Part shown: in pieces, positions 1-10,125 of the stretch
How the letters are laid out: each line of letters begins with the position of its first letter
Numbering within the stretch: the first letter of the stretch is position 1
Source: a virus
Taxonomy: Duplodnaviria; Heunggongvirae; Uroviricota; Caudoviricetes
Length of the DNA stretch: 10,125 nt
IMG/VR virus record: IMGVR_UViG_2585427783_000002
Reading direction: 5' to 3' (one strand)
The notes under the pieces: generated by a model
The model's input: the letters and a program-made list of their open reading frames with translations, nothing else
What the model was told of the DNA's origin: nothing
The model's database searches: none
Made by a program: the position numbers and the translations under genes

Positions 1-1293
<1,293 letters not shown>

Positions 1294-1313
1294 TACCCAA
1301 TTTTTCTGAATCT

Positions 1314-1335
1314 AAAAAGCGCCTGCGGGCGCTTT
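1314..1335 (+). terminator. Hairpin just downstream of serS; weak intrinsic terminator
   Basis: A-run, then stem GCGCC (1319-1323) pairing GGCGC (1328-1332) around a 4-nt loop, followed by only three T before the sequence turns AT-rich. Confidence 0.35.
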
Positions 1336-1409
1336 AAGTAGAGGTTTAATCATTTGAAAATAAATGGATTTTATTTTTAAGTGTCCATATAACGTCCATC
1401 TTTGAATGC

Positions 1410-1448
1410 AAAAAGCCCACAGCTTCTATGCTGTGGGCTTTGTTTTTT
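1410..1448. terminator. Bidirectional rho-independent terminator
   Basis: Perfect 9-bp stem GCCCACAGC (1415-1423) / GCTGTGGGC (1430-1438) with a 6-nt loop, flanked by an A-run upstream and TTTGTTTTTT downstream, so it reads as a terminator on either strand. Confidence 0.55.
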
Positions 1449-1472
1449 GGTGTCCTCATGAGTGAGGGAACC

Positions 1473-1504
1473 AAAAAGAAAACCCGCAGTTTTTACGCTG
1501 CGGG
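1473..1504 (-). terminator. Intrinsic terminator, probable 3' end of the hok-like mRNA
   Basis: 7-bp stem CCCGCAG (1483-1489) / CTGCGGG (1498-1504). On the minus strand it is followed by a U-tract (reverse complement of AAAAAGAAAA at 1473-1482). It lies about 95 nt downstream of the hok-like stop. Confidence 0.5.
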
Positions 1505-1598
1505 CTTGTTGTTCACGTCAACTGGAAATAGGGTGCCTTTTCGACCTTTACCCTGGCAACCGATTGACGGGGAAGTTGCCTTCCCCGTCGCGGTTTCC

Positions 1599-1739
1599 TT
1601 ACTGCTTACACTGTAAGAACGCCGCAAACTCCGCTCCCCAGAAGCTCATCCGTATTTCGCACAGTGAACCGTGCAGCATCCAGATGATGAGGATTGCCGT
1701 CACGCAGAACGTGATGGCCGTAAGCGATTTTTGCGACAT
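1599..1739 (-). CDS. Hok/Gef-family type I toxin (46 aa), not in the ORF track
   Basis: Minus-strand ATG at 1739 to TAA at 1599-1601, with an AAGGAG Shine-Dalgarno 8 nt upstream. Translation: MSQKSLTAITFCVTAILIIWMLHGSLCEIRMSFWGAEFAAFLQCKQ. It has an N-terminal hydrophobic helix, the SLCEIR motif of Hok, and an AAFL-C-K tail like HokA/HokB (family signatures recalled from memory). Confidence 0.8.
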   Translation of the reverse strand: MSQKSLTAITFCVTAILIIWMLHGSLCEIRMSFWGAEFAAFLQCKQ

Positions 1740-1869
1740 AGCACTTGCTCCTTTTCCGGAGAGGCGCTAACCTTTCACTTGTCAAGGTAATGCGGTTAGG
1801 GCCTCGGTTAAACAGAGATGTTTTCCGGGGCCTTTCCACATCTGGCCTTCGGGTATTCCCTCCGACCAT
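1606..1869 (-). CDS. mok-like overlapping frame; start codon uncertain
   Basis: An open frame in a different register covers almost the whole hok-like gene and stops 7 nt before its stop, which is the layout of mok relative to hok. There is no convincing Shine-Dalgarno at the 1869 ATG, so the true start may be an internal or non-ATG codon. Confidence 0.3.
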   Translation of the reverse strand: MVGGNTRRPDVERPRKTSLFNRGPNRITLTSERLAPLRKRSKCYVAKIAYGHHVLRDGNPHHLDAARFTVRNTDELLGSGVCGVLTV

Positions 1870-1891
1870 CAGCCGAAAGGCACCCGCGCGT

Positions 1892-1920
1892 AATCTATCG
1901 CTTTTTTGTTAATCCGGCAA
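1892..1920 (-). promoter_or_regulatory. Candidate sigma-70 promoter for the hok-like mRNA
   Basis: On the minus strand: -35 TTGCCG (plus 1915-1920), 17-bp spacer, -10 TAGATT (plus 1892-1897). A start near 1885 and the terminator near 1475 would give a transcript of about 400 nt, the size class of hok mRNAs. Prediction by motif only. Confidence 0.3.
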
Positions 1921-1929
1921 TTCTGCCTG

Positions 1930-2190
1930 TTAGTTCTGAGGTAAAGGCAAACTCATCTGATTGTTTCCCCTGTGTGAAGCTGGCAGCTCATGCCACGGGA
2001 TACCTTCTGAAGAGTGAACGGCGGAGGCGTGTTTTGATGTGAATTTATGGAAAGCTTCCAGTGTTGAGAAGCATACGCCGCATTCCAGGTTGTTACACTG
2101 GTAATACTTTTGCCGCACGGTGTTTGAATCATTTTCCGGACGACTGGTGCGGATACGGGCAGATGCGCCACAAAGCGGACAACGGAACAT
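1930..2190 (-). CDS. ogr: Ogr/Delta-family zinc-finger late transcription activator
   Basis: 86-aa ORF beginning MFRCPLCGASARIRTSR and containing YYQCNNLECG, giving the Cys-X2-Cys ... Cys-X4-Cys arrangement of P2 Ogr. AAGGGAGG Shine-Dalgarno upstream of the ATG at 2190. Confidence 0.9.
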   Translation of the reverse strand: MFRCPLCGASARIRTSRPENDSNTVRQKYYQCNNLECGVCFSTLEAFHKFTSKHASAVHSSEGIPWHELPASHRGNNQMSLPLPQN

Positions 2191-2232
2191 AGCGACCTCC
2201 CTTAACGTGGTGCTGCCGCTATTCTAAGTTGC

Positions 2233-3342
2233 TCACTCTGTTTCCGCTATCCATTCCGGGATTTTTGCCTCAAGCTCAAGCTGCGTGGTAAAGCCGCTGT
2301 TATCAATAGTGTGCTCGGCTTTTGCAATGATCCAGTCCTGATTATCAATCTCGCTTTTAAATCCTGTTACCGTACCATGCATTTCGGGGTAGAGTTCTGC
2401 ACGTCCACGCGCCAGCGTGATGGAGAATGATGCGGCTCCGCGTTGTAGCTGCTGCCACTTTGCCGCCGCTGCGCGTCTTGCTGCCTGTTCGTTCTGATAG
2501 GTCTTGCGTAACACAAACACATTGCCTTCCGCGCCTTCCATATAATCACCTTCACGGCTGCTGCTTTTCTCCTTTTTGGGTTTTGGCGGTTTGCGGCGTT
2601 TCACGCTGACTTTTTTCTTTTTCCCGTAATTAAGATCAAGCCAGTAAGCGCGTACCCCCGTATACGCTTCGCGGTCAGCAATGCGGAACTGATGGCGATC
2701 GCCACTGCTGCGCGTGATGGCGAACGAGGGCAACGGCTGGCCCTGTGCGTTCACGCCACCGCCTGGCATGATGAATAACAGATTACCGCTTTTTACCGTA
2801 GTGATTGCGCCCAGCATTTCCGCCATGCGCGTAAGGAAGGACATGTCGCTTTCTTCGGTCTGGTCGGCGTGGTCGATTTCGATATCCATCAGCATTTCGC
2901 TGATTTGTGGTTTCAGACCGTACCGATGAGCGATGGCGGATACCACGCGCTCAACGGTCACATCATGCCAGGACACCTCACGTTTAACGTTAAATTCATC
3001 CCGAAAATCTGCGCTTCTGGCTGAAACAGTCAGCCTGTCCGGCGGTCCTTCGTGAGCGATTTCATCAACAATGTAAGTGCCTTTTTCTGTCAGCGGTTCT
3101 CCTTTCCAGCCAATGAGAACCGTCAGGCGCGCGCCCCGTGGCGGTAGCAGCAACTGACCATCCGCATCATCCAGCGTGATGGTGAGCTGGTCCGCCTCAA
3201 ATCCCCGGTTGTCGGTCAGTGACAGGCTCATCAGGCACTCTGCCACGCCTGACAGCGTTTTACCCTCCGCGAGAATATCAAAATCCGGCATTTTCACGGG
3301 GTCTGTGCCCTGACTGAGCAATTGCATGGTGGTGTCGGTCAT
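2233..3342 (-). CDS. D: P2 gpD-like tail protein (late control gene D)
   Basis: Long minus-strand ORF with the gpD-type layout, including a lysine-rich internal segment. I place the start at the ATG at 3342 because GGAGGGAG sits directly upstream; the track ORF extends to 3474 but that extension has no ribosome-binding site. Confidence 0.88.
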   Translation of the reverse strand: MTDTTMQLLSQGTDPVKMPDFDILAEGKTLSGVAECLMSLSLTDNRGFEADQLTITLDDADGQLLLPPRGARLTVLIGWKGEPLTEKGTYIVDEIAHEGPPDRLTVSARSADFRDEFNVKREVSWHDVTVERVVSAIAHRYGLKPQISEMLMDIEIDHADQTEESDMSFLTRMAEMLGAITTVKSGNLLFIMPGGGVNAQGQPLPSFAITRSSGDRHQFRIADREAYTGVRAYWLDLNYGKKKKVSVKRRKPPKPKKEKSSSREGDYMEGAEGNVFVLRKTYQNEQAARRAAAAKWQQLQRGAASFSITLARGRAELYPEMHGTVTGFKSEIDNQDWIIAKAEHTIDNSGFTTQLELEAKIPEWIAETE

Positions 3343-3499
3343 CTGCTCCCTCCCTGTGCGGCATGGTCGCATGTGCGTGCGGAGGGGGTTACTGCTTTTT
3401 GTTGTCGCCGTGGCGGGAGAACGGCGCAGGGGTGAGATTACGCGCGTGGTGGGTGATGATTGTTGCCGAATCATTTAACGGATACAAGGGGCTGAAGCT

Positions 3500-4684
3500 A
3501 TGAGTGAAACTCGTTTTCATGGTGCCCGTGTTACGGAAAGTACCGACCTGGTAACAGCGATTAATGATGTTGATTCCAGCGTTATCGGTATCGTGGCAAC
3601 GGCGGATGATGCGGACGCGAAGCTGTTCCCGCTGAACAAGCCCACACTGCTGACCCGCGTCAATGACGTGCTGGGAAAATGCGGGACAACGGGGACGCTT
3701 TATCGTGCGCTTAAGGCCATCGCAGACCAGGTGAGCACAAAGGTGATCGTCGTTCGCGTGGCTGAACACAAAGAAGAAAACGGAAAGACGCAGGATCAAC
3801 TGGTTATCGGTGGTTCTGAATCTGACGGCAGCTATACGGGGATGTATGCGCTGCTTGTTGCAGAGCAGGATGAAAGCATCGGATACCGTCCGCGTATTCT
3901 GGCCGCGCCGGAGCTGGACACGGAGGCGGTGACAAAATCCCTGTGCGTGATTGCGGGTAAACTGCGCGCGTTTGTGTATGCCGCATGTCATGGTTGTAAC
4001 ACGATGGCTGAGGCGATTACCTACCGCCAGAAATTCAACGAACGTGAGGTGATGCTCTTATGGCCTGACTTCATCGCCTACAACCCGAAAAGTGGCAAAA
4101 ACGAAACGTTCCCCGCGCCTGCTTATGCGTGCGGCCTTCGTGCGTACATTGACCATGAGCAGGGTTGGCACAAATCGCTGTCCAACGTTCCGGTTAAAAA
4201 TGTGCTGGGGATGTCGAGGCATGTGTTCTGGTCGTTACAGGCCGAAGACAGTGATGCCAACAGCCTCAACAACAAAGAAATCACGACCATTATTCGTCGT
4301 AACGGGTTCCGCTTCTGGGGCAACCGCACACCGGAAACGAACGCCTACATCTTTGAGGTGTATACCCGAACCGCACAGGTGCTGGCTGATTCAATTGCGG
4401 AAGCGCAGTTTGAAACCATCGACAGTCCACTGACGCCTGCGAACGTGAAGGATGTTATCAGTGCCATCAGGGCAAAACTGGATTCACTGGTTACTGCCGG
4501 GAAACTGATTGGGGCGTCGTGCTGGTATGACGTGGTGGATAACAGCACCACGAATTTACGTCAGGGGCGTGTGCGTATTCGCTACAAATATACGCCCGTT
4601 CCGCCGCTGGAAGACATGGAGCTTTACCAGTCGTTTACTGATGAATTCTTTGGTCCCGCATTTGCGGTGCTGGGAGGTGCCTGA
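3500..4684 (+). CDS. FI: Contractile tail sheath protein (P2 FI-like)
   Basis: 394-aa ORF that aligns by eye along its length with P2 FI as I recall it, with shared motifs DQEQGWHK/DHEQGWHK, RRDGFRFWGNRT/RRNGFRFWGNRT and YTPVPPLE. Confidence 0.95.
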   Translation: MSETRFHGARVTESTDLVTAINDVDSSVIGIVATADDADAKLFPLNKPTLLTRVNDVLGKCGTTGTLYRALKAIADQVSTKVIVVRVAEHKEENGKTQDQLVIGGSESDGSYTGMYALLVAEQDESIGYRPRILAAPELDTEAVTKSLCVIAGKLRAFVYAACHGCNTMAEAITYRQKFNEREVMLLWPDFIAYNPKSGKNETFPAPAYACGLRAYIDHEQGWHKSLSNVPVKNVLGMSRHVFWSLQAEDSDANSLNNKEITTIIRRNGFRFWGNRTPETNAYIFEVYTRTAQVLADSIAEAQFETIDSPLTPANVKDVISAIRAKLDSLVTAGKLIGASCWYDVVDNSTTNLRQGRVRIRYKYTPVPPLEDMELYQSFTDEFFGPAFAVLGGA

Positions 4685-5196
4685 TGGCTGTACCAAAACA
4701 TCTTCGCTTTTTTACGCTGTTTGTGGATGGTGAAAACGAAGTGGGTAAGGTGACGTCCGTCACGCCGCCCAAACTGACGCGCAAAACCGACAGCTATCGG
4801 GGTGGTGGCATGATGGGGGCGGTAAGTATTGATCTCGGTCTGGACGACTCCGCGCTTGATGCGAGTTTTGTTATGGGGGGAGCTGTTCGTGCGCTGTTCC
4901 TTAAATATGGCGGCACGATTGACGGCACGCTGCTGCGTTTTGCGGGTGAATACTACACCGATGCAGAAAGCGATCTGTATGAAATCGAGATGCGCGGGCG
5001 TGTGACGGAAATTGATATGGGGGAGGCCAAACAGGGCGAAGCCACATCACACACTTACGCTGTCAAAAACACCTACTACAAGCTGAGCGTTAACGATCGC
5101 CCGCTGTGGGAAATCGACCTGCTGAACCACATCTACCGGAAGGACGGCAAGGACATTGTGCCCGATCGCATCCGTTCCGCGCTTGGGCTTGGCTGA
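4684..5196 (+). CDS. FII: Tail tube protein (P2 FII-like)
   Basis: 170-aa ORF whose ATG overlaps the FI stop (TGATG coupling). It contains PPKLTRK, YRGGGM and VMRGR..EIDMGE..QGE, which match the FII pattern. Confidence 0.93.
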   Translation: MAVPKHLRFFTLFVDGENEVGKVTSVTPPKLTRKTDSYRGGGMMGAVSIDLGLDDSALDASFVMGGAVRALFLKYGGTIDGTLLRFAGEYYTDAESDLYEIEMRGRVTEIDMGEAKQGEATSHTYAVKNTYYKLSVNDRPLWEIDLLNHIYRKDGKDIVPDRIRSALGLG

Positions 5197-5208
5197 TAAG
5201 TAATATGC

Positions 5209-5229
5209 AGGCGGCGCAGTGCGTCGCCT
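5209..5229 (+). other. Intercistronic stem-loop between FII and E
   Basis: Near-perfect inverted repeat AGGCGGCGCA / TGCGTCGCCT with one G-U pair and no U-tract after it, lying between the FII stop (5196) and the AAGGAG Shine-Dalgarno of E. Confidence 0.3.
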
Positions 5230-5250
5230 CTGACTGAAAGGAGACAACTG

Positions 5251-5624
5251 ATGAAAGATATCGATACTGAAACCCGGAATAACACCGTAGCGGATGATGT
5301 GACGGCAGGGGAGGATATGGCTGTCGAACGTGGTGTAAAACTTTCCCGGCCAATTGAGCGTGGTGGCGAAAAAATCACATATGTGGAGATCACCGGGGCT
5401 ATTGAGCAGGCGGGATCCCTGCGTGGTCTGTCGCTGTCTGATGTGCTGAATCTGAAAGCGGATCCATGTTCACGCTGCTGCCTCGCGTGACCTCGCCACG
5501 ACTGGATGAAGTGATGATTAAAAAAATGGCATCACGCGACTTTATTCAGTTGTGCGCTGTGGCTGTAAATTTTATGAGCGAGCCAGACTCTGGCGCGAAG
5601 AGCGTGCAGGAGACGGCAGCCTAA
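5251..5624 (+). pseudogene. E: Tail assembly chaperone E (gpE-like) with an internal frame break
   Basis: Frame 1 (5251 onward) encodes the conserved N-terminal part, including GSLRGLSLSDVLNLKAD, but stops at 5488-5490 after a non-homologous tail. The conserved continuation MFTLLPRVTSPRLDEV...AVAVNF is in the -1 frame from 5466 to 5624. This is consistent with a 1-bp deletion near 5461-5466, or a sequencing error. Confidence 0.6.
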
Positions 5625-5788
5625 TCACCCTGGTGTGCTTTGAGCACATCGAAGATCTGGTGGCGGATATTGCCGCCATTTTTAACTGGTCGCCCGCCGA
5701 AATCTTCATGATGACGCCCGGCGAAGTGGTTAGCTGGCGCGAGCGGGCGGCACTTCGCAGCGGGAATGCAGACAATGAAGACTCTTGA
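5522..5788 (+). CDS. E-prime extension frame, expected to be expressed only as an E+E-prime fusion
   Basis: Frame -1 relative to the distal E frame, open from 5522 to TGA at 5786-5788. It encodes ...IEDLVADIAAIFNWSPAEIFMMTPGEVVSWRERAALR, which resembles the gpE-prime C-terminal domain, and its end overlaps the T start. Confidence 0.5.
   Translation, partial: KNGITRLYSVVRCGCKFYERARLWREERAGDGSLITLVCFEHIEDLVADIAAIFNWSPAEIFMMTPGEVVSWRERAALRSGNADNEDS
5567..5573 (+). promoter_or_regulatory. Candidate -1 programmed frameshift heptamer A AAT TTT for E to E-prime
   Basis: It is the only X-XXY-YYZ heptamer in register with the E frame inside the window where E-prime is open (5522-5621). It sits at the ...VNF position, analogous to where I recall the P2 slippery run lying. 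Confidence 0.4.
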
Positions 5789-8582
5789 TATCCGGGTCGC
5801 TTTCAGCGCCGTTGACAGGCTGACCCGGCCTGCCGAAAACGCCCGCCGCCTGATGGGGCAGTTTGGTGACTCCATCCAGCGAACGCAGGGGGCGATCAAA
5901 AATCTCGAGCGTCAGGCGCGTTCATTTGAGCGCGCCCGTGACGCTGTCAGTAAAGCGGATGCGGGCATCGTGAAAGCACGACGCCAGCTTAACGCCCTTA
6001 ATCAGTTACAACGCACGGGTACAGTGCTCAGCGAAAAACAACAAAAGCTGATGCAGCAGTTAAGCACCCGGCTTGAACGCCTGAATGAATCGCGCACACG
6101 GGAAATTCAGAAAATGCGGGAACTTGGCGGAGAGCTGAAACGCCACGGCATTTCCCTGACAGGCAGCGATAACACCATCCAGCAGGCCATCAGACGCACC
6201 GAACAGTACAACAATCAGCTTGAACGCGAACGGCAGGCGCTTGCGCGTGTAACGCGGGCGCGTGAGCGGTATTCGCGCGCGCAGGAAACCGCGGGAAAAC
6301 TGAAAACAGGTGGTGCGCTGACAATTGGTGCGGCAGCGGCTGGCGGCTATGCTGCCGGGCGTTTTTTGCAGCCTGCGATCGGGTTCGGGAAAGAGATGTC
6401 CCGCGTTCAGGCACTGACGCGAATCGACAAGAACAGCCCGCAGTTTAAGGCGCTGCGTGAGCAGGCGTTAAAACTTGGCTCTGAAACGCAGTTCACCGCA
6501 GGCGATGCCGCCAGTGGGCAGGCATTTCTGGCAATGGCTGGCTTCACACCGCAGGCCATTCAGGCTGCGCTTCCCGGCGTGCTGAGCATGGCAACGGCTG
6601 GCGGTATGGACCTTGGCGAGACGGCAGATATTGGCTCAAATATCCTGACGCAGTTCGGCCTCTCCGCTGACCAGATGGACCGGGTCGGTGACACGCTTAC
6701 AGCAGTGTTTACCCGTACTAACACTGACCTTCGCGCACTGGGCGAAACCATGAAATATGCAGGTCCGGTGGCGGGTAAGCTGGGAATATCGCTGGAGCAG
6801 GCCGCAGCGATGGCGGGCGTGCTGGCGAATATGGGTATCAGAGGGAGTGATGCCGGGACGGCAATGCGTGCCAGCCTGGCTCGTCTGGCATCACCGCCAA
6901 AGGCGGCAGCAGAAGCGCTGAAAGAGCTGGGTGTGTCCGCCTCTGATGCGAACGGCAAAATGCGCCCGATGGAAGATGTGCTGGCCGACCTTTATAAAGC
7001 CACCCGTAAATACGGGGAAGTTGACCGGGTATCGTTCTTTAAGGACATTGCCGGGGAAGAGGCTTTCACGTCGTTTATGGCTCTCGTTGATGCGGCGGGT
7101 GACGGCTCCCTGCCCAAACTGAGAAAAGAACTTGAGGGCGCACGCGGTGAGGCTGAACGCACGGCAAAGGTTATGGCCAATAACCTTGATGGCGACCTGA
7201 AATCACTCGGCAGTGCATGGGAAGGGCTGCGTATCCGCATTGCAGATCTGATTGATGGTCCGCTGCGTTCTGTCACGCAGTGGCTCACGCGGGTGGTCTC
7301 AAAGGTGACGGCGCTGGCACAGGCCCATCCGGTACTGACGCGCCAGTTACTGATAGCAGGCGGTGCGCTGCTGGCAATGACTGCAACGGTTGGCTCGTTG
7401 TCGCTGGTTATTGGAGTGCTTCACGGGAAGCTGGCCACGTTGCGTCTTGGTTTTTCTCTCCTGACCGGATCAATGAATGCTGTCAGGCTCCTGCCAGCAC
7501 TATGGGGAATGGTGACGGGTTCCGTTTCGTTACTGGGGGGCGCTATCGGGGCGCTGTTCAGCCCGGTCGGATTGATTGCTGCTGCGTTTGTGGCTGCGGC
7601 GGTTCTCATCTGGAAATACTGGGAACCCATCAAGGCGTTTTATGCCGGGGTGTTCAGCGGGATTATGGAGCGGCTGGCCCCGTTACGCGAAACCTTTGAA
7701 CGGTTTGGTCCTGTTTTTGACGCAATCGGAAGCGGGATAAGTCAGGTGTTTAACTGGTTTAAATCGTTGCTGTCACCGATGGAGTCCAGCAAGGAAACGC
7801 TGGATAAATGTACCAGTGCTGGCGAGATATTCGGTAACGTTCTTGGCGGTGCGTTACAGCTTGTTCTGACGCCCGCAAAAATGTTGCTGGATACGCTGGC
7901 GTGGATACTTGAAAAACTCGGTGTGCTTCCGGATGAAGCGGAAAGGGCGAGAAAGAAAATCGAAGACGCACAGCGTGCGGCCATTCTTCAGGACAAGGTT
8001 GCTCTGTTTCAGGGAGACATTGCGAAAATCAATCCGCCGAAGTCTGCGGAAAATGGCAATGGCACCGGAGGTGATAAACCCAAAGACAATAAACCGCTCA
8101 CAGACAGCAATACCGGTACGCTACGCAGACTCAGCAAAATTGCTGATAACACAGGTAAGCTGGTTGATGAGACGAAAAAACGTATTGGCCCCGGCGATAT
8201 TGTCTTTAAGAACCTGCCCCGCGCACTTGCCGTTCGTGGGGAGTGGCAGGAGCGGAAGATTGTGCAGGTCAGTAAGCCTGCCCCCGCAATTAATATCACA
8301 CCCGTGGTCCCGGCTCCGCTGCCTCCGGCGCTGGTCCCTGTTGTTGCGGCCAGCTCCCGCCCGGTGGCGGAGGCCATACGATCTCCAGTGGCATCAGTTC
8401 CTGTAACTTCCCGTAACCGGGAGCCTGTTGCCTCCGGATTTGGTGGTGAAATTCATGTTCATCTGCATAACGTTGTTACGCAGAATCCCCGCGAACTGGC
8501 GAAACTGGTCGGTGAAATGGTCAGGGCAGAAATGGAACGGCGCGCCCGTGCCGGGCGTGGCAGTTTTTACGATAAAGATTGA
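5766..8582 (+). CDS. T: Tail tape measure protein (P2 gpT-like)
   Basis: 938-aa ORF with a coiled-coil-rich N-terminal region, a glycine/alanine-rich hydrophobic central segment and a proline-rich C-terminus, sitting between E/E-prime and U. The start could instead be the ATG at 5775. Confidence 0.9.
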   Translation: MQTMKTLDIRVAFSAVDRLTRPAENARRLMGQFGDSIQRTQGAIKNLERQARSFERARDAVSKADAGIVKARRQLNALNQLQRTGTVLSEKQQKLMQQLSTRLERLNESRTREIQKMRELGGELKRHGISLTGSDNTIQQAIRRTEQYNNQLERERQALARVTRARERYSRAQETAGKLKTGGALTIGAAAAGGYAAGRFLQPAIGFGKEMSRVQALTRIDKNSPQFKALREQALKLGSETQFTAGDAASGQAFLAMAGFTPQAIQAALPGVLSMATAGGMDLGETADIGSNILTQFGLSADQMDRVGDTLTAVFTRTNTDLRALGETMKYAGPVAGKLGISLEQAAAMAGVLANMGIRGSDAGTAMRASLARLASPPKAAAEALKELGVSASDANGKMRPMEDVLADLYKATRKYGEVDRVSFFKDIAGEEAFTSFMALVDAAGDGSLPKLRKELEGARGEAERTAKVMANNLDGDLKSLGSAWEGLRIRIADLIDGPLRSVTQWLTRVVSKVTALAQAHPVLTRQLLIAGGALLAMTATVGSLSLVIGVLHGKLATLRLGFSLLTGSMNAVRLLPALWGMVTGSVSLLGGAIGALFSPVGLIAAAFVAAAVLIWKYWEPIKAFYAGVFSGIMERLAPLRETFERFGPVFDAIGSGISQVFNWFKSLLSPMESSKETLDKCTSAGEIFGNVLGGALQLVLTPAKMLLDTLAWILEKLGVLPDEAERARKKIEDAQRAAILQDKVALFQGDIAKINPPKSAENGNGTGGDKPKDNKPLTDSNTGTLRRLSKIADNTGKLVDETKKRIGPGDIVFKNLPRALAVRGEWQERKIVQVSKPAPAINITPVVPAPLPPALVPVVAASSRPVAEAIRSPVASVPVTSRNREPVASGFGGEIHVHLHNVVTQNPRELAKLVGEMVRAEMERRARAGRGSFYDKD

Positions 8583-8594
8583 GGAGTCATGGCC

Positions 8595-9083
8595 ATGATG
8601 ATGATCTACGGCATGTTTGTTTTTGAGCTGCGCACGCTGCCGCATCAGCAGTTACAGCAAAACAAAAGCTGGCGGCATGTGAAAAATGAACGCGTTAACC
8701 GTTCAGCAAGCTGGCAGTATATCGGTGCAGGTGATGATCGCATCGTTCTTTCTGGTGTGCTTTATCCTGAAATTACAGGTGGCGAAGTGTCGCTGTCGCT
8801 GCTGACCACGCAGGCGTATACAGGACGACCCTGGCCTTTGATTGATGGCGTCGGGCAGATTTACGGCATGTATGTCCTGACCGGAACGAACACGACCCGT
8901 TCCGAGTTTGATCGCTACGGTAAGGCGAAAAAGATAGAATTTTCACTGACCCTTGAACGCTGTGATGAGGATTTGCGGGAGCGCCTGCAATCCTCATCGT
9001 TCAGCGATATGCTGTCCGGCTTCAAAGATAAAGTGACATCATCCCTTAACAGCGCGGCCAGTTCAGTTAAAGGGCTGTTCTGA
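8595..9083 (+). CDS. U: Tail protein U (P2 gpU-like)
   Basis: Translation from 8595 begins MMMIYGMFVFELRTLPHQ, matching the gpU N-terminus as I recall it. AGGAG at 8582-8586 is spaced 8 nt from this ATG; the 8589 ATG in the track is only 2 nt from it. Confidence 0.88.
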   Translation: MMMIYGMFVFELRTLPHQQLQQNKSWRHVKNERVNRSASWQYIGAGDDRIVLSGVLYPEITGGEVSLSLLTTQAYTGRPWPLIDGVGQIYGMYVLTGTNTTRSEFDRYGKAKKIEFSLTLERCDEDLRERLQSSSFSDMLSGFKDKVTSSLNSAASSVKGLF

Positions 9084-9090
9084 TTTAATG

Positions 9091-9122
9091 CTGGCCACTC
9101 ATACCTGGTAATAAGTGGCCAG
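9091..9122 (+). terminator. Stem-loop downstream of U; possible operon terminator
   Basis: 9-bp stem CTGGCCACT (9091-9099) / AGTGGCCAG (9114-9122) around a 14-nt loop. The following T-tract is weak (TCTTAAC). Confidence 0.3.
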
Positions 9123-9245
9123 TCTTAACACTCACCATTTGATTGCACCCGCGTTAACGATTTGTTACTGGGTATCAGACATGCTGGATAGCCAGTAGAA
9201 ACATACCATTAAAATTATTACAATAATTGGTCACATGATTATCTT

Positions 9246-9470
9246 ATGCTGAATAATAGAGATATGAATATTAATGAACTTAAAGACTGTATTCACTATG
9301 AAGTAATCGGTAGCGAGCGTCCTTTCTCCTGGCGAAAGGCAATTGTTCGCGCAATAAAACATAGAAGACTTCGTTATTTATTTTGGTGGCGCATAGCCAA
9401 ATACCTTTTTGATAAAGGCGGATACTGCCGGAAGATTGCGGGGAAAATAGAACGTTTCATTCTTGGGTAG
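9246..9470 (+). pseudogene. 5' fragment of a cargo gene cut by IS1; possibly a hexapeptide-repeat acetyltransferase
   Basis: ORF in an AT-rich segment whose stop codon TAG (9468-9470) is supplied by the IS1 terminal repeat. The segment RLRYLFWWRIAKYLFDKGG..KIAGKIERFI resembles the N-terminal region that precedes the hexapeptide repeats in CysE/WcaB-type acetyltransferases. That assignment is tentative and from memory. Confidence 0.45.
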
Positions 9471-9488
9471 TGACTCCAACTTACTGAT
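9466..9488. repeat. IS1 terminal inverted repeat (IRR-type end)
   Basis: Matches the recalled IS1 IRR GGTAATGACTCCAACTTATTGAT with two substitutions. Confidence 0.85.
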
Positions 9489-9985
9489 AGTGTTTTATGT
9501 TCAGATAATGCCCGATGACCTTGTCATGCAGCTCCACCGATTTTGAGAACGACAGTGACTTCCGTCCCAGCCTTGCCAGATGTTGTCTCAGATTCAGATT
9601 ATGTCGCTCAATGCGCTGAGTGTAACACTTGCTGATAACGTGCAGCTTTCCCTTCAGGCGTGATTCATACAGCGGCCAGCCATCCGTCATCCATACCACG
9701 ACCTCAAAGGCCGACAGCAGGCTCAGAAGACGCGCCAGTGTGGCCAGAGTGCGTTCACCGAAAAACGTGGGCCACGACAGTCCTGCGTACCCTGTCATAC
9801 GCGTAAAACAGCCAGCGCTGGCGTGATTTAGCCCCGACGTAGCTCCACTGTTCGTCCATTTCCGCGCAGACGATGACGTCCCTGCCCGGCTGTATGCGCG
9901 AGGTTACCGACTGCGGCCTGAGTTTTTTAAATGGCGGAAAATCGTGTTGAGGCCAACGCCAATAATGCGGGCAGTTGCCCGGCAT
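9481..9985 (-). pseudogene. insB: IS1 insB, frameshifted
   Basis: InsB homology is split between two overlapping frames (track ORFs 9755..9985 and 9481..9798). The break is at the A-run 9761-9765, where this copy has one extra base relative to the canonical ...VVAHVFGERT... coding sequence. Confidence 0.7.
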
Positions 9986-10125
9986 CCAACGCCATTCATG
10001 GCCATATCAATGATTTTCTGGTGCGTACCGGGTTGAGAAGCGGTGTAAGTGAACTGCAGTTGCCATGTTTTACGGCAATGAGAGCAGAGATAGCGCTGAT
10101 GTCCGGCAGTGCTTTTGCCGTTACG
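9904..10125 (-). CDS. insA: IS1 insA, 3' part (5' end beyond the window)
   Basis: The minus-strand translation from the window edge reads [25 protein letters not shown]...LKNSGRSR and stops at 9904-9906, matching InsA. Confidence 0.85.
9922..9928 (-). promoter_or_regulatory. IS1 AAAAAAC programmed -1 frameshift motif (insA to insAB)
   Basis: Plus-strand GTTTTTT at 9922-9928 is the reverse complement of the IS1 slippery heptamer, located at the 3' end of insA. Confidence 0.7.

Follow-up and report, generated by a model that had tools for sequence, protein, structure and literature searches.

Bacteriophage P2 carries its tail genes in a single late operon, FI-FII-E-E'-T-U-D, followed by the activator gene ogr, and in the P2 record all these genes lie on one strand. 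The window analysed here, a 10,125-nt stretch of a virus genome record (IMGVR_UViG_2585427783_000002), does not have this single one-strand operon. D and FI instead start on opposite sides of a 157-bp gap and diverge from it, exactly at the positions that a sequence-only reading of this DNA had given (Table 1). The locus raises the question of whether this divergent layout is an accident of one genome or the natural gene order of a phage group, and how D and ogr would be expressed once D no longer lies behind the FI promoter.

Gene identities were assigned from the list of open reading frames, Pfam matches, tblastn with P2 proteins, and close annotated relatives. The window has the gene content of a P2-like contractile tail, with Pfam matches above the curated cut-offs (sheath, tube, PhageMin_Tail, GpU, and GPD) and homologous genes that are 32–48% identical to those of the P2 F operon (tblastn), and the same tblastn alignments confirm that FI, FII, E, T, and U are opposite in strand to D and ogr. 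As in P2, ogr is adjacent to D, downstream on the same strand; its product is 38% identical to P2 Ogr (tblastn) and matches Pfam Ogr_Delta, so that the element encodes its own Ogr/Delta activator. D aligns with P2 gpD at 48% identity over residues 15–384 without a frameshift (tblastn), is 99% identical to the D of the Xuanwuvirus phage P884B11, and has its ATG at 3342, preceded by GGAGGG. Whereas P2 D overlaps the end of U, D in the window does not adjoin U. The Phage_P2_GpE match was obtained on the homologue of the E' ORF in L004, a 49-kb locus with a fully mapped prophage, and not on the window ORF. On the left, the prophage is bordered by the host gene serS, and the hok/gef-family gene is situated between ogr and the attachment end on the side of serS, as it is in P88. 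Its counterparts are annotated as Hok/Gef in L004 and in E. coli R8 (L005) and as MokW-like ("MokW-like host killing") in P88. An Rfam scan of the whole window found no RNA family, and no Sok-type antisense model scored above threshold near hok.

Table 1. Features of the 10,125-nt window, in window coordinates, with the evidence for each.
Feature	Coordinates	Strand	Evidence and remarks
serS (seryl-tRNA synthetase)	1–1293	+	Pfam tRNA-synt_2b, Seryl_tRNA_N; same place in relatives (RefSeq)
hok/gef-family toxin gene, prophage left end	1599–1739	-	Pfam HOK_GEF, 29.9 bits
ogr, zinc-finger late-transcription activator	1930–2190	-	Pfam Ogr_Delta (PF04606), 52.5 bits (cut-off 26.3)
D, tail/baseplate hub protein	2233–3342	-	Intact 369-aa ORF; Pfam Phage_GPD
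Divergent D/FI control region, 157 bp	3343–3499		Sequence; architecture conserved across relatives with 61–100% D identity
Predicted pD extended -10, TGcGACCAT	3363–3371	-	Hexamer GACCAT at 3368–3363; predicted D transcript start near 3356
Central dyad GTTGT-N12-AGAAC, Ogr/Delta-box type (TGT-N12-ACA class)	3401–3422		Centre between 3411 and 3412
Predicted pF -10 hexamer, GATGAT	3455–3460	+	Predicted FI transcript start near 3467
FI, tail sheath	3500–4684	+	Pfam Phage_sheath_1, Phage_sheath_1C, Gp18_domIII_N; 45% identity to P2 FI
FII, tail tube	4684–5196	+	Pfam Phage_tube; 42% identity to P2 FII
E/E' tail assembly chaperone region	5251–5788	+	ORFs of relatives: Phage_TAC_7 (weak), Phage_P2_GpE
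T, tape measure protein	5766–8582	+	Pfam PhageMin_Tail; 32% identity to P2 T
U, tail protein, last gene of the inverted block	8589–9083	+	Pfam Phage_P2_GpU; 46% identity to P2 U
Stem-loop just after the U stop	9085–9128		Inverted repeat I6; 18-nt arms, 83% complementary, 8-nt loop; no T-run
AT-rich cargo gene, 5' fragment (hexapeptide "serine acetyltransferase")	9246–9466	+	Full-length homologue matches Pfam Hexapep
IS1, partial, runs past the window end	9467–10125	-	Pfam DDE_Tnp_IS1; 92–97% identity to IS1 copies in many records

Megablast against phage genomes returned 13 records representing eight named phages of the genus Xuanwuvirus (family Peduoviridae), namely P88, P884B11, Citrobacter phage Shae_phiSM (phiSM), PhiR44_2, Chuche, 520873, 500465-2, and 503458. 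They match the window from about 1466/1528 to 9088 at 93–97% identity in one to three colinear pieces (a single piece for P88, P884B11, phiSM, PhiR44_2, and Chuche), and this identity and colinearity over the tail region place the window in Xuanwuvirus. P88 and its relatives, including phiSM and P884B11, have the same order of hok, ogr, and D with FI to U on the opposite strand, the same 157-bp gap, and the same dyad within it. In the annotations of P88 and phiSM, the plus strand carries the genes for sheath, tube, tape measure, and U, and D lies on the minus strand, diverging from them. After U comes an invertase gene, and the genes for tail fibres and baseplate then occupy the minus strand again. 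P88 can be induced and is lytic, forming plaques, and phiSM is spontaneously active (PMC6456863; PMC5285337). The window differs from P88 in carrying an acetyltransferase cargo gene after U instead of the invertase, in the IS1 that cuts this cargo, and in a frameshift in E.

The same DNA is common in E. coli chromosomes: at least 80% of the window is found in one place beside serS in 305 complete genomes, including those of UTI89 and NU14. In L004, the left part of the prophage reads serS, hok, ogr and D (minus), FI to U (plus), and the acetyltransferase gene, and the right part continues with G H I J W V S R, the lysis genes, and X L M N O (minus), P Q (plus), and the replication genes; S and V are only 11 bp apart in this locus (region 34817–36030). 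In E. coli R8, the right end of the prophage consists of cox, C, and int, followed by dmsA. The window is thus the left arm of a P88-like (Xuanwuvirus, Peduoviridae) prophage integrated between serS and dmsA, and the rest of this prophage is colinear with P2 (Q P / O N M L X ... R S V W J I H G). In the E. coli matches H36–H39 and H52, the span covered by the window beside serS also contains a TIR-domain gene, likely a defence cargo insertion, and the match there is in two pieces.

Some public annotations of this region deviate from our gene assignments. In the phiSM record (L002, OR565851.1; 2294–4745), product names are shifted: D is called "ogr/Delta-like zinc finger family protein", and the name "late control gene D protein" is given to the sheath gene. 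The RefSeq D call in L004 (22233–23086) and L005 (12232–13085) covers only 801 nt ("VgrG/Pvc8 family") and is accompanied by a small pseudogene. The D start in L004 looks as if it was annotated too far downstream, because P2 gpD aligns continuously over about 1050 nt without a frameshift (tblastn).

The divergent order is also found in more distant relatives, which we surveyed by scans with alignment of D proteins, the intermediate phage relatives being retrieved by tblastn with D. In SEN5 (Senquatrovirus, D 63% identical), D shares its strand with V W J I H G, and U T E FII FI lie between G and D on the opposite strand; Kp4871-3 (Reginaelenavirus) and Kp4847-1 (Reipivirus), with D about 70% identical, have the divergent order too (tblastn). 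Like the window, these three genera of Salmonella and Klebsiella phages (Senquatrovirus being represented by SEN4 and SEN5) combine the inverted FI-U block with a central dyad and mirrored -10 elements, but their D proteins are only 61–80% identical to that of the window, their dyads are mostly the canonical TGT-N12-ACA, and other cargo or none lies between U and G. The layout is divergent in all of the best 80 IMG/VR viral contigs (D 61–100% identical). It is likewise divergent on bacterial contigs, for which one genome per species was used, wherever D reaches 61% identity or more (61/61 loci). Bacterial loci with D at most 54% identical instead have U and D adjacent on the same strand (22/22), and Kapieceevirus, Felsduovirus (SopEPhi), and Firavirus (D 50–53%) are colinear as well, as is P2. 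Hosts of the divergent clade span at least 25 genera of Enterobacterales, among them Escherichia, Salmonella, Citrobacter, Klebsiella, Enterobacter, Serratia, Erwinia, Pantoea, Pectobacterium, Brenneria, Edwardsiella, Yersinia, Hafnia, Morganella, Providencia, Xenorhabdus, and Photorhabdus. The divergent layout, with D about 95–98% identical, is also present on a 226-kb contig assigned to a Firmicute (L094, NZ_JBQPOM010000071.1, "Vagococcus sp. WN89Y"), which looks like contamination or a mislabelled assembly.

The window copy itself is damaged. Alignment with P88, phiSM, and an E. coli prophage reveals a 1-bp deletion near 5464 (GCGGAT-CCATG) that breaks the E frame, and the E ORF stops at 5490 after 79 codons, compared with about 120–124 in relatives; E is probably a pseudogene in this copy, or possibly the result of a sequencing error. 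The frames of D, FI, FII, T, and U remain full-length. GC content is 0.39–0.40 across 9001–9600, i.e. after U, and the sequence-only reading had described this part as unrelated AT-rich DNA in place of D. AT-rich DNA is indeed present there and is not D, but it comprises the first 221 bp (74 codons) of a known acetyltransferase cargo gene at its usual slot, and then IS1. The cargo gene has promoter-like sites at 9196–9257 (sigma-70 scan) and is cut at 9466/9467 by the end of IS1, with the terminal repeat GGTAGTGACTCCAACTTACTGAT at 9467, which we take to be an IS1 end. The region 8993–9465 is 97.5% identical to phage vB_EcoM-613R2, and 1–9465 is matched by 11 complete E. coli genomes among the matches listed.

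Among relatives, the slot between U and the tail-fibre-assembly gene holds an invertase (P88, phiSM, and E. coli R8) or an acetyltransferase (L004 and vB_EcoM-613R2) or is empty (SEN5), and the corresponding slot of P2, between G and FI, holds fun(Z). Because this slot holds different cargo among relatives and has a counterpart in P2, we read the AT-rich DNA as ordinary cargo and not as a breakpoint scar, and the only junction peculiar to the genome of the window is that with IS1 at 9466/9467. The stem-loop just after U could mark the end of F-operon transcripts or a site of processing where this operon converges with the tail-fibre operon. Beyond the truncated cargo gene, the window contains no phage genes (tail-fibre, baseplate, and head genes are absent), and with phage homology ending after U, the cargo gene cut, and the deletion in E, it does not represent a complete functional phage genome. 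The frameshift, the IS1 truncation, and the absence of further phage genes in the window identify this copy as a decaying prophage remnant, in which the sequence beyond the cargo gene was removed or displaced by IS1. An independent IS1 deletion lies nearby in E. coli R8, after the invertase gene, where the tail module is joined to cox-C-int-dmsA; this remnant keeps only the genes from hok to the invertase gene and cox-C-int.

IS1 at the end of the window, the degraded state of the prophage, and the colinear order of P2 itself could suggest that the divergent layout is a recent rearrangement or an assembly artefact in this genome alone, possibly linked to IS1, and the sequence-only reading had entertained such a peculiarity. 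We give this explanation next to no chance, as the D/FI junction is present in the eight named phages (13 records) and the 305 complete E. coli genomes, all of 141 further relatives have the same layout, the junction of U with the AT-rich DNA is contiguous in 11 E. coli genomes among the matches listed and in vB_EcoM-613R2, and neither IS1 nor an inverted repeat is found at the D/FI junction. A systematic assembly error common to public genomes is implausible across so many platforms and species. Intact relatives had been named beforehand as the place where a peculiarity of this genome could be disproved, and P88, phiSM, and the rest of Xuanwuvirus do have D and FI diverging; across the E. coli genomes, the three additional genera, and the further loci, the layout is fixed in the clade. 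Divergent D/FI is therefore almost certainly the natural, inherited gene order of the P88-like clade and neither a local event nor an assembly error. What holds from the earlier reading is the inversion itself: compared with P2, pF and FI to U are flipped as a block, one breakpoint lying upstream of the FI promoter and the other between U and D, which leaves D split off at a distance of 157 bp from FI, separated from the FI promoter, and in need of a promoter of its own. It was also right in not blaming IS1, since no IS1 lies at the D/FI junction and no inverted repeat links 3343–3499 with 9084–9245.

The simplest reading of these data is one old in-place inversion of FI-FII-E-T-U together with its promoter, which would then have become fixed in the clade. 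We infer a single event because the loci split cleanly by D identity, with divergent order at 61% and above and colinear order at 54% and below, and the colinear order of P2 is taken as ancestral because P2, the relatives with 50–54% identity, and Burkholderia phage KS5 (gene table in PMC3091744) all have it. Phage genomes are mosaic, and the slot beside U is a hot spot for cargo and exchange (invertase, acetyltransferase, or nothing), which would also suit a foreign tail module that came from another contractile-tail phage and was inserted in reverse. This origin of FI-U appears very improbable to us: amino-acid identity to P2 is alike inside the block (FI 45%, FII 42%, U 46%) and outside it (D 48%, V 47%, W 44%, N 41%, P 44%; all tblastn), the divergence of FI, FII, and U follows that of D within the clade (identity to the window proteins at 109 loci, r = 0.80–0.91; D vs. 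FI, r = 0.91), and the FI promoter keeps the geometry of P2 pF, with 82–88 nt from the dyad centre to the FI ATG vs. 82.5 in P2. A repeat search found no inverted repeats joining the two breakpoints, and an origin through IS elements or homologous recombination is thus unsupported; likewise, with no IS1 at the D/FI junction and no such repeats, the breakpoints lack the marks expected of a recent IS- or invertase-mediated inversion. An aberrant event of a Gin/Cin-type invertase was considered and rejected on the position of its gene, which the inverted segment does not include: its place and orientation relative to H and G in P88 are the same as those of the invertase fragment in the colinear SopEPhi.

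The 157-bp gap contains a single central dyad, GTTGT-CGCCGTGGCGGG-AGAAC, preceded by TTTTT, which is the only exact match to GTTGT-N12-A[CG]AAC in the window. An exact search of the window for TGT-N12-ACA found no site in the gap, the right half being AGA; the dyad was detected with one mismatch allowed and then confirmed from relatives. Across the 49 kb of L004, GTTGT-N12-A[CG]AAC occurs only in the D/FI and O/P gaps (0.20 expected by chance), the O/P gap having TTTTGTTGT-N12-AGAAC. Exactly one TGT-N12-A[CG]A is present in 136 of 145 D/FI regions and two are present in 4/145. The five regions without a match include L078 and L079, with a fully palindromic GGTTCT-N12-AGAACC (GGTTCTCATGTGCCTATGAGAACC) in which both halves are of the AGAAC type, and L010 (D 100% identical to that of the window), with GAAAAC instead of GAGAAC as the right half-site. 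Among 49 non-redundant sequences, 33 have the exact canonical TGT-N12-ACA and 16 have the AGA right half, like the window. The half-sites are conserved (invariant in most), and the spacer varies freely between lineages.

To either side of the dyad, -10-like positions are conserved at mirror distances. When these 49 sequences, each <90% identical to the others, were stacked gap-free on the dyad centre, with no start calls used, A, A, and T at +45, +48, and +49 on the FI side were kept in 94–96%, and their mirror images on the D side in 92% (-45, the second base of the hexamer), 80% (-48), and 84% (-49), with mostly degenerate columns between the elements. The complement of G at -42 is kept in 84%, which fits an extended -10 on the D side, and TG is present at the extended -10 position of this side in 27/49. 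Hexamers of the form nAnnAT thus lie 44–49 nt from the dyad centre on both sides, matching the P2 late -10 distance within 1 nt, and the partial dyad is about 55 nt upstream of the predicted starts (TGT-N12-AGA in the window, with ACA in 33/49 relatives). A simple scan of the gap for sigma-70 consensus promoters and terminators found nothing, which is expected for activator-dependent promoters but is not evidence in their favour. Additional conserved elements are a GAACTCA motif downstream of the pF -10 and a GC-rich block (consensus CGCGCGCG; TGCGTGCGG in the window at ~3371–3379) just upstream of the proposed pD -10. In the O/P gap of L004, a block resembling it immediately precedes the proposed pP -10, and none is found on the pF or pO sides.

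In late promoters of the P2/P4/186 type, transcription requires Ogr bound at a dyad of this kind and the alpha subunit of RNA polymerase. The architecture of the gap has a mapped counterpart in the divergent promoters pP and pO of P2. The P2 record gives the pair a single activator site (3057–3087) and places their transcript starts at 3016 and 3127; for both, the distance to the centre of the dyad GTTGT-N12-CCATC is 55.5 nt. Both are short divergent gaps (157 bp in the window, 154 bp for O/P in the same prophage family, and 173 bp in P2) with one partial dyad midway and symmetrically spaced -10 elements, about 55 nt from the dyad to starts that are predicted in the window and mapped in P2. 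They differ in the genes served, which are D-ogr and FI-U in the window and packaging and head genes in P2, and in the right half-site, which is AGAAC in the window. Judged from this architecture, the 157-bp gap is likely a second bidirectional Ogr-dependent late promoter region, pD/pF, with one shared box. We infer that Ogr binds the box and that two transcripts start there: bound at about -55, it would activate transcription rightward into FI-U from pF and leftward into D-ogr from pD. In this scenario, pF would have been carried along by the inversion and pD recruited afterwards on the other face of the shared site. The pD leader would be short, about 13 nt, and carry the GGAGGG ribosome-binding site, and because ogr follows D, late pD transcripts would read into ogr, as P2 F-operon transcripts do (terminator note in the P2 record).

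The layout could also be natural and the dyad serve pF alone, or D could have an independent promoter that is constitutive or uses its own activator site. The proposed pD -10 of the window (GACCAT) is indeed weak by itself, the leader of only about 13 nt is short, and the conserved GC-rich block between the pD -10 and the dyad could be a separate element. We nevertheless consider either version unlikely. On the D side, the -10-like positions lie at the exact mirror distance (44–49 nt) and are conserved unlike the neighbouring columns, the dyad centre is held at 67–71 nt from the D ATG at most loci, the gap contains no second TGT-N12-ACA, and in P2 a single site serves both pP and pO, whose starts are mapped. 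The shared box accordingly remains our preferred reading of the gap, and the explanation as a whole, i.e. a P88-like prophage with an old, fixed inversion and a late promoter region built on a shared site, is likely correct; its gene order, phylogenetic distribution, and sequence architecture are directly visible in the data.

If the box is shared, its symmetry may be what made the inversion viable. We lean slightly towards the view that one symmetric Ogr box sufficed and that only a -10 had to evolve for D, because the inversion put D in reach of an inherently two-sided activator site, and that the clade may lack pV. A loss of the separate pV of P2 is suggested by the absence of a box upstream of V: in L004, no site with one mismatch or fewer was found in the 137 bp upstream of V. 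The late genes of the clade may thus run from two bidirectional control regions, P/O and D/FI, and O through G may be transcribed as one unit.

The gene order can already be read from public annotated genomes and, as a rearrangement, is ordinary; the searched literature, including the papers on P88, SEN4/SEN5, and phiSM, mentions neither the inversion nor the D promoter. Mildly new are the clade-wide picture and the proposed shared-site promoter, which would explain the late control of D-ogr, and the finding is a variation on the well-understood late regulation of P2 and not a new principle. For annotation, it means that divergent D/FI should not be flagged as a rearrangement, misassembly, or sign of prophage decay, as it reliably marks a large P88/SEN5-like clade of P2 relatives. 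For the biology of these phages, the clade offers a natural experiment in promoter evolution, in which the stranded D-ogr pair appears to have been rescued via the other face of a symmetric activator site. If true, this would be an example of how the symmetry of an activator site can allow an operon to be split and flipped while its regulation is kept.
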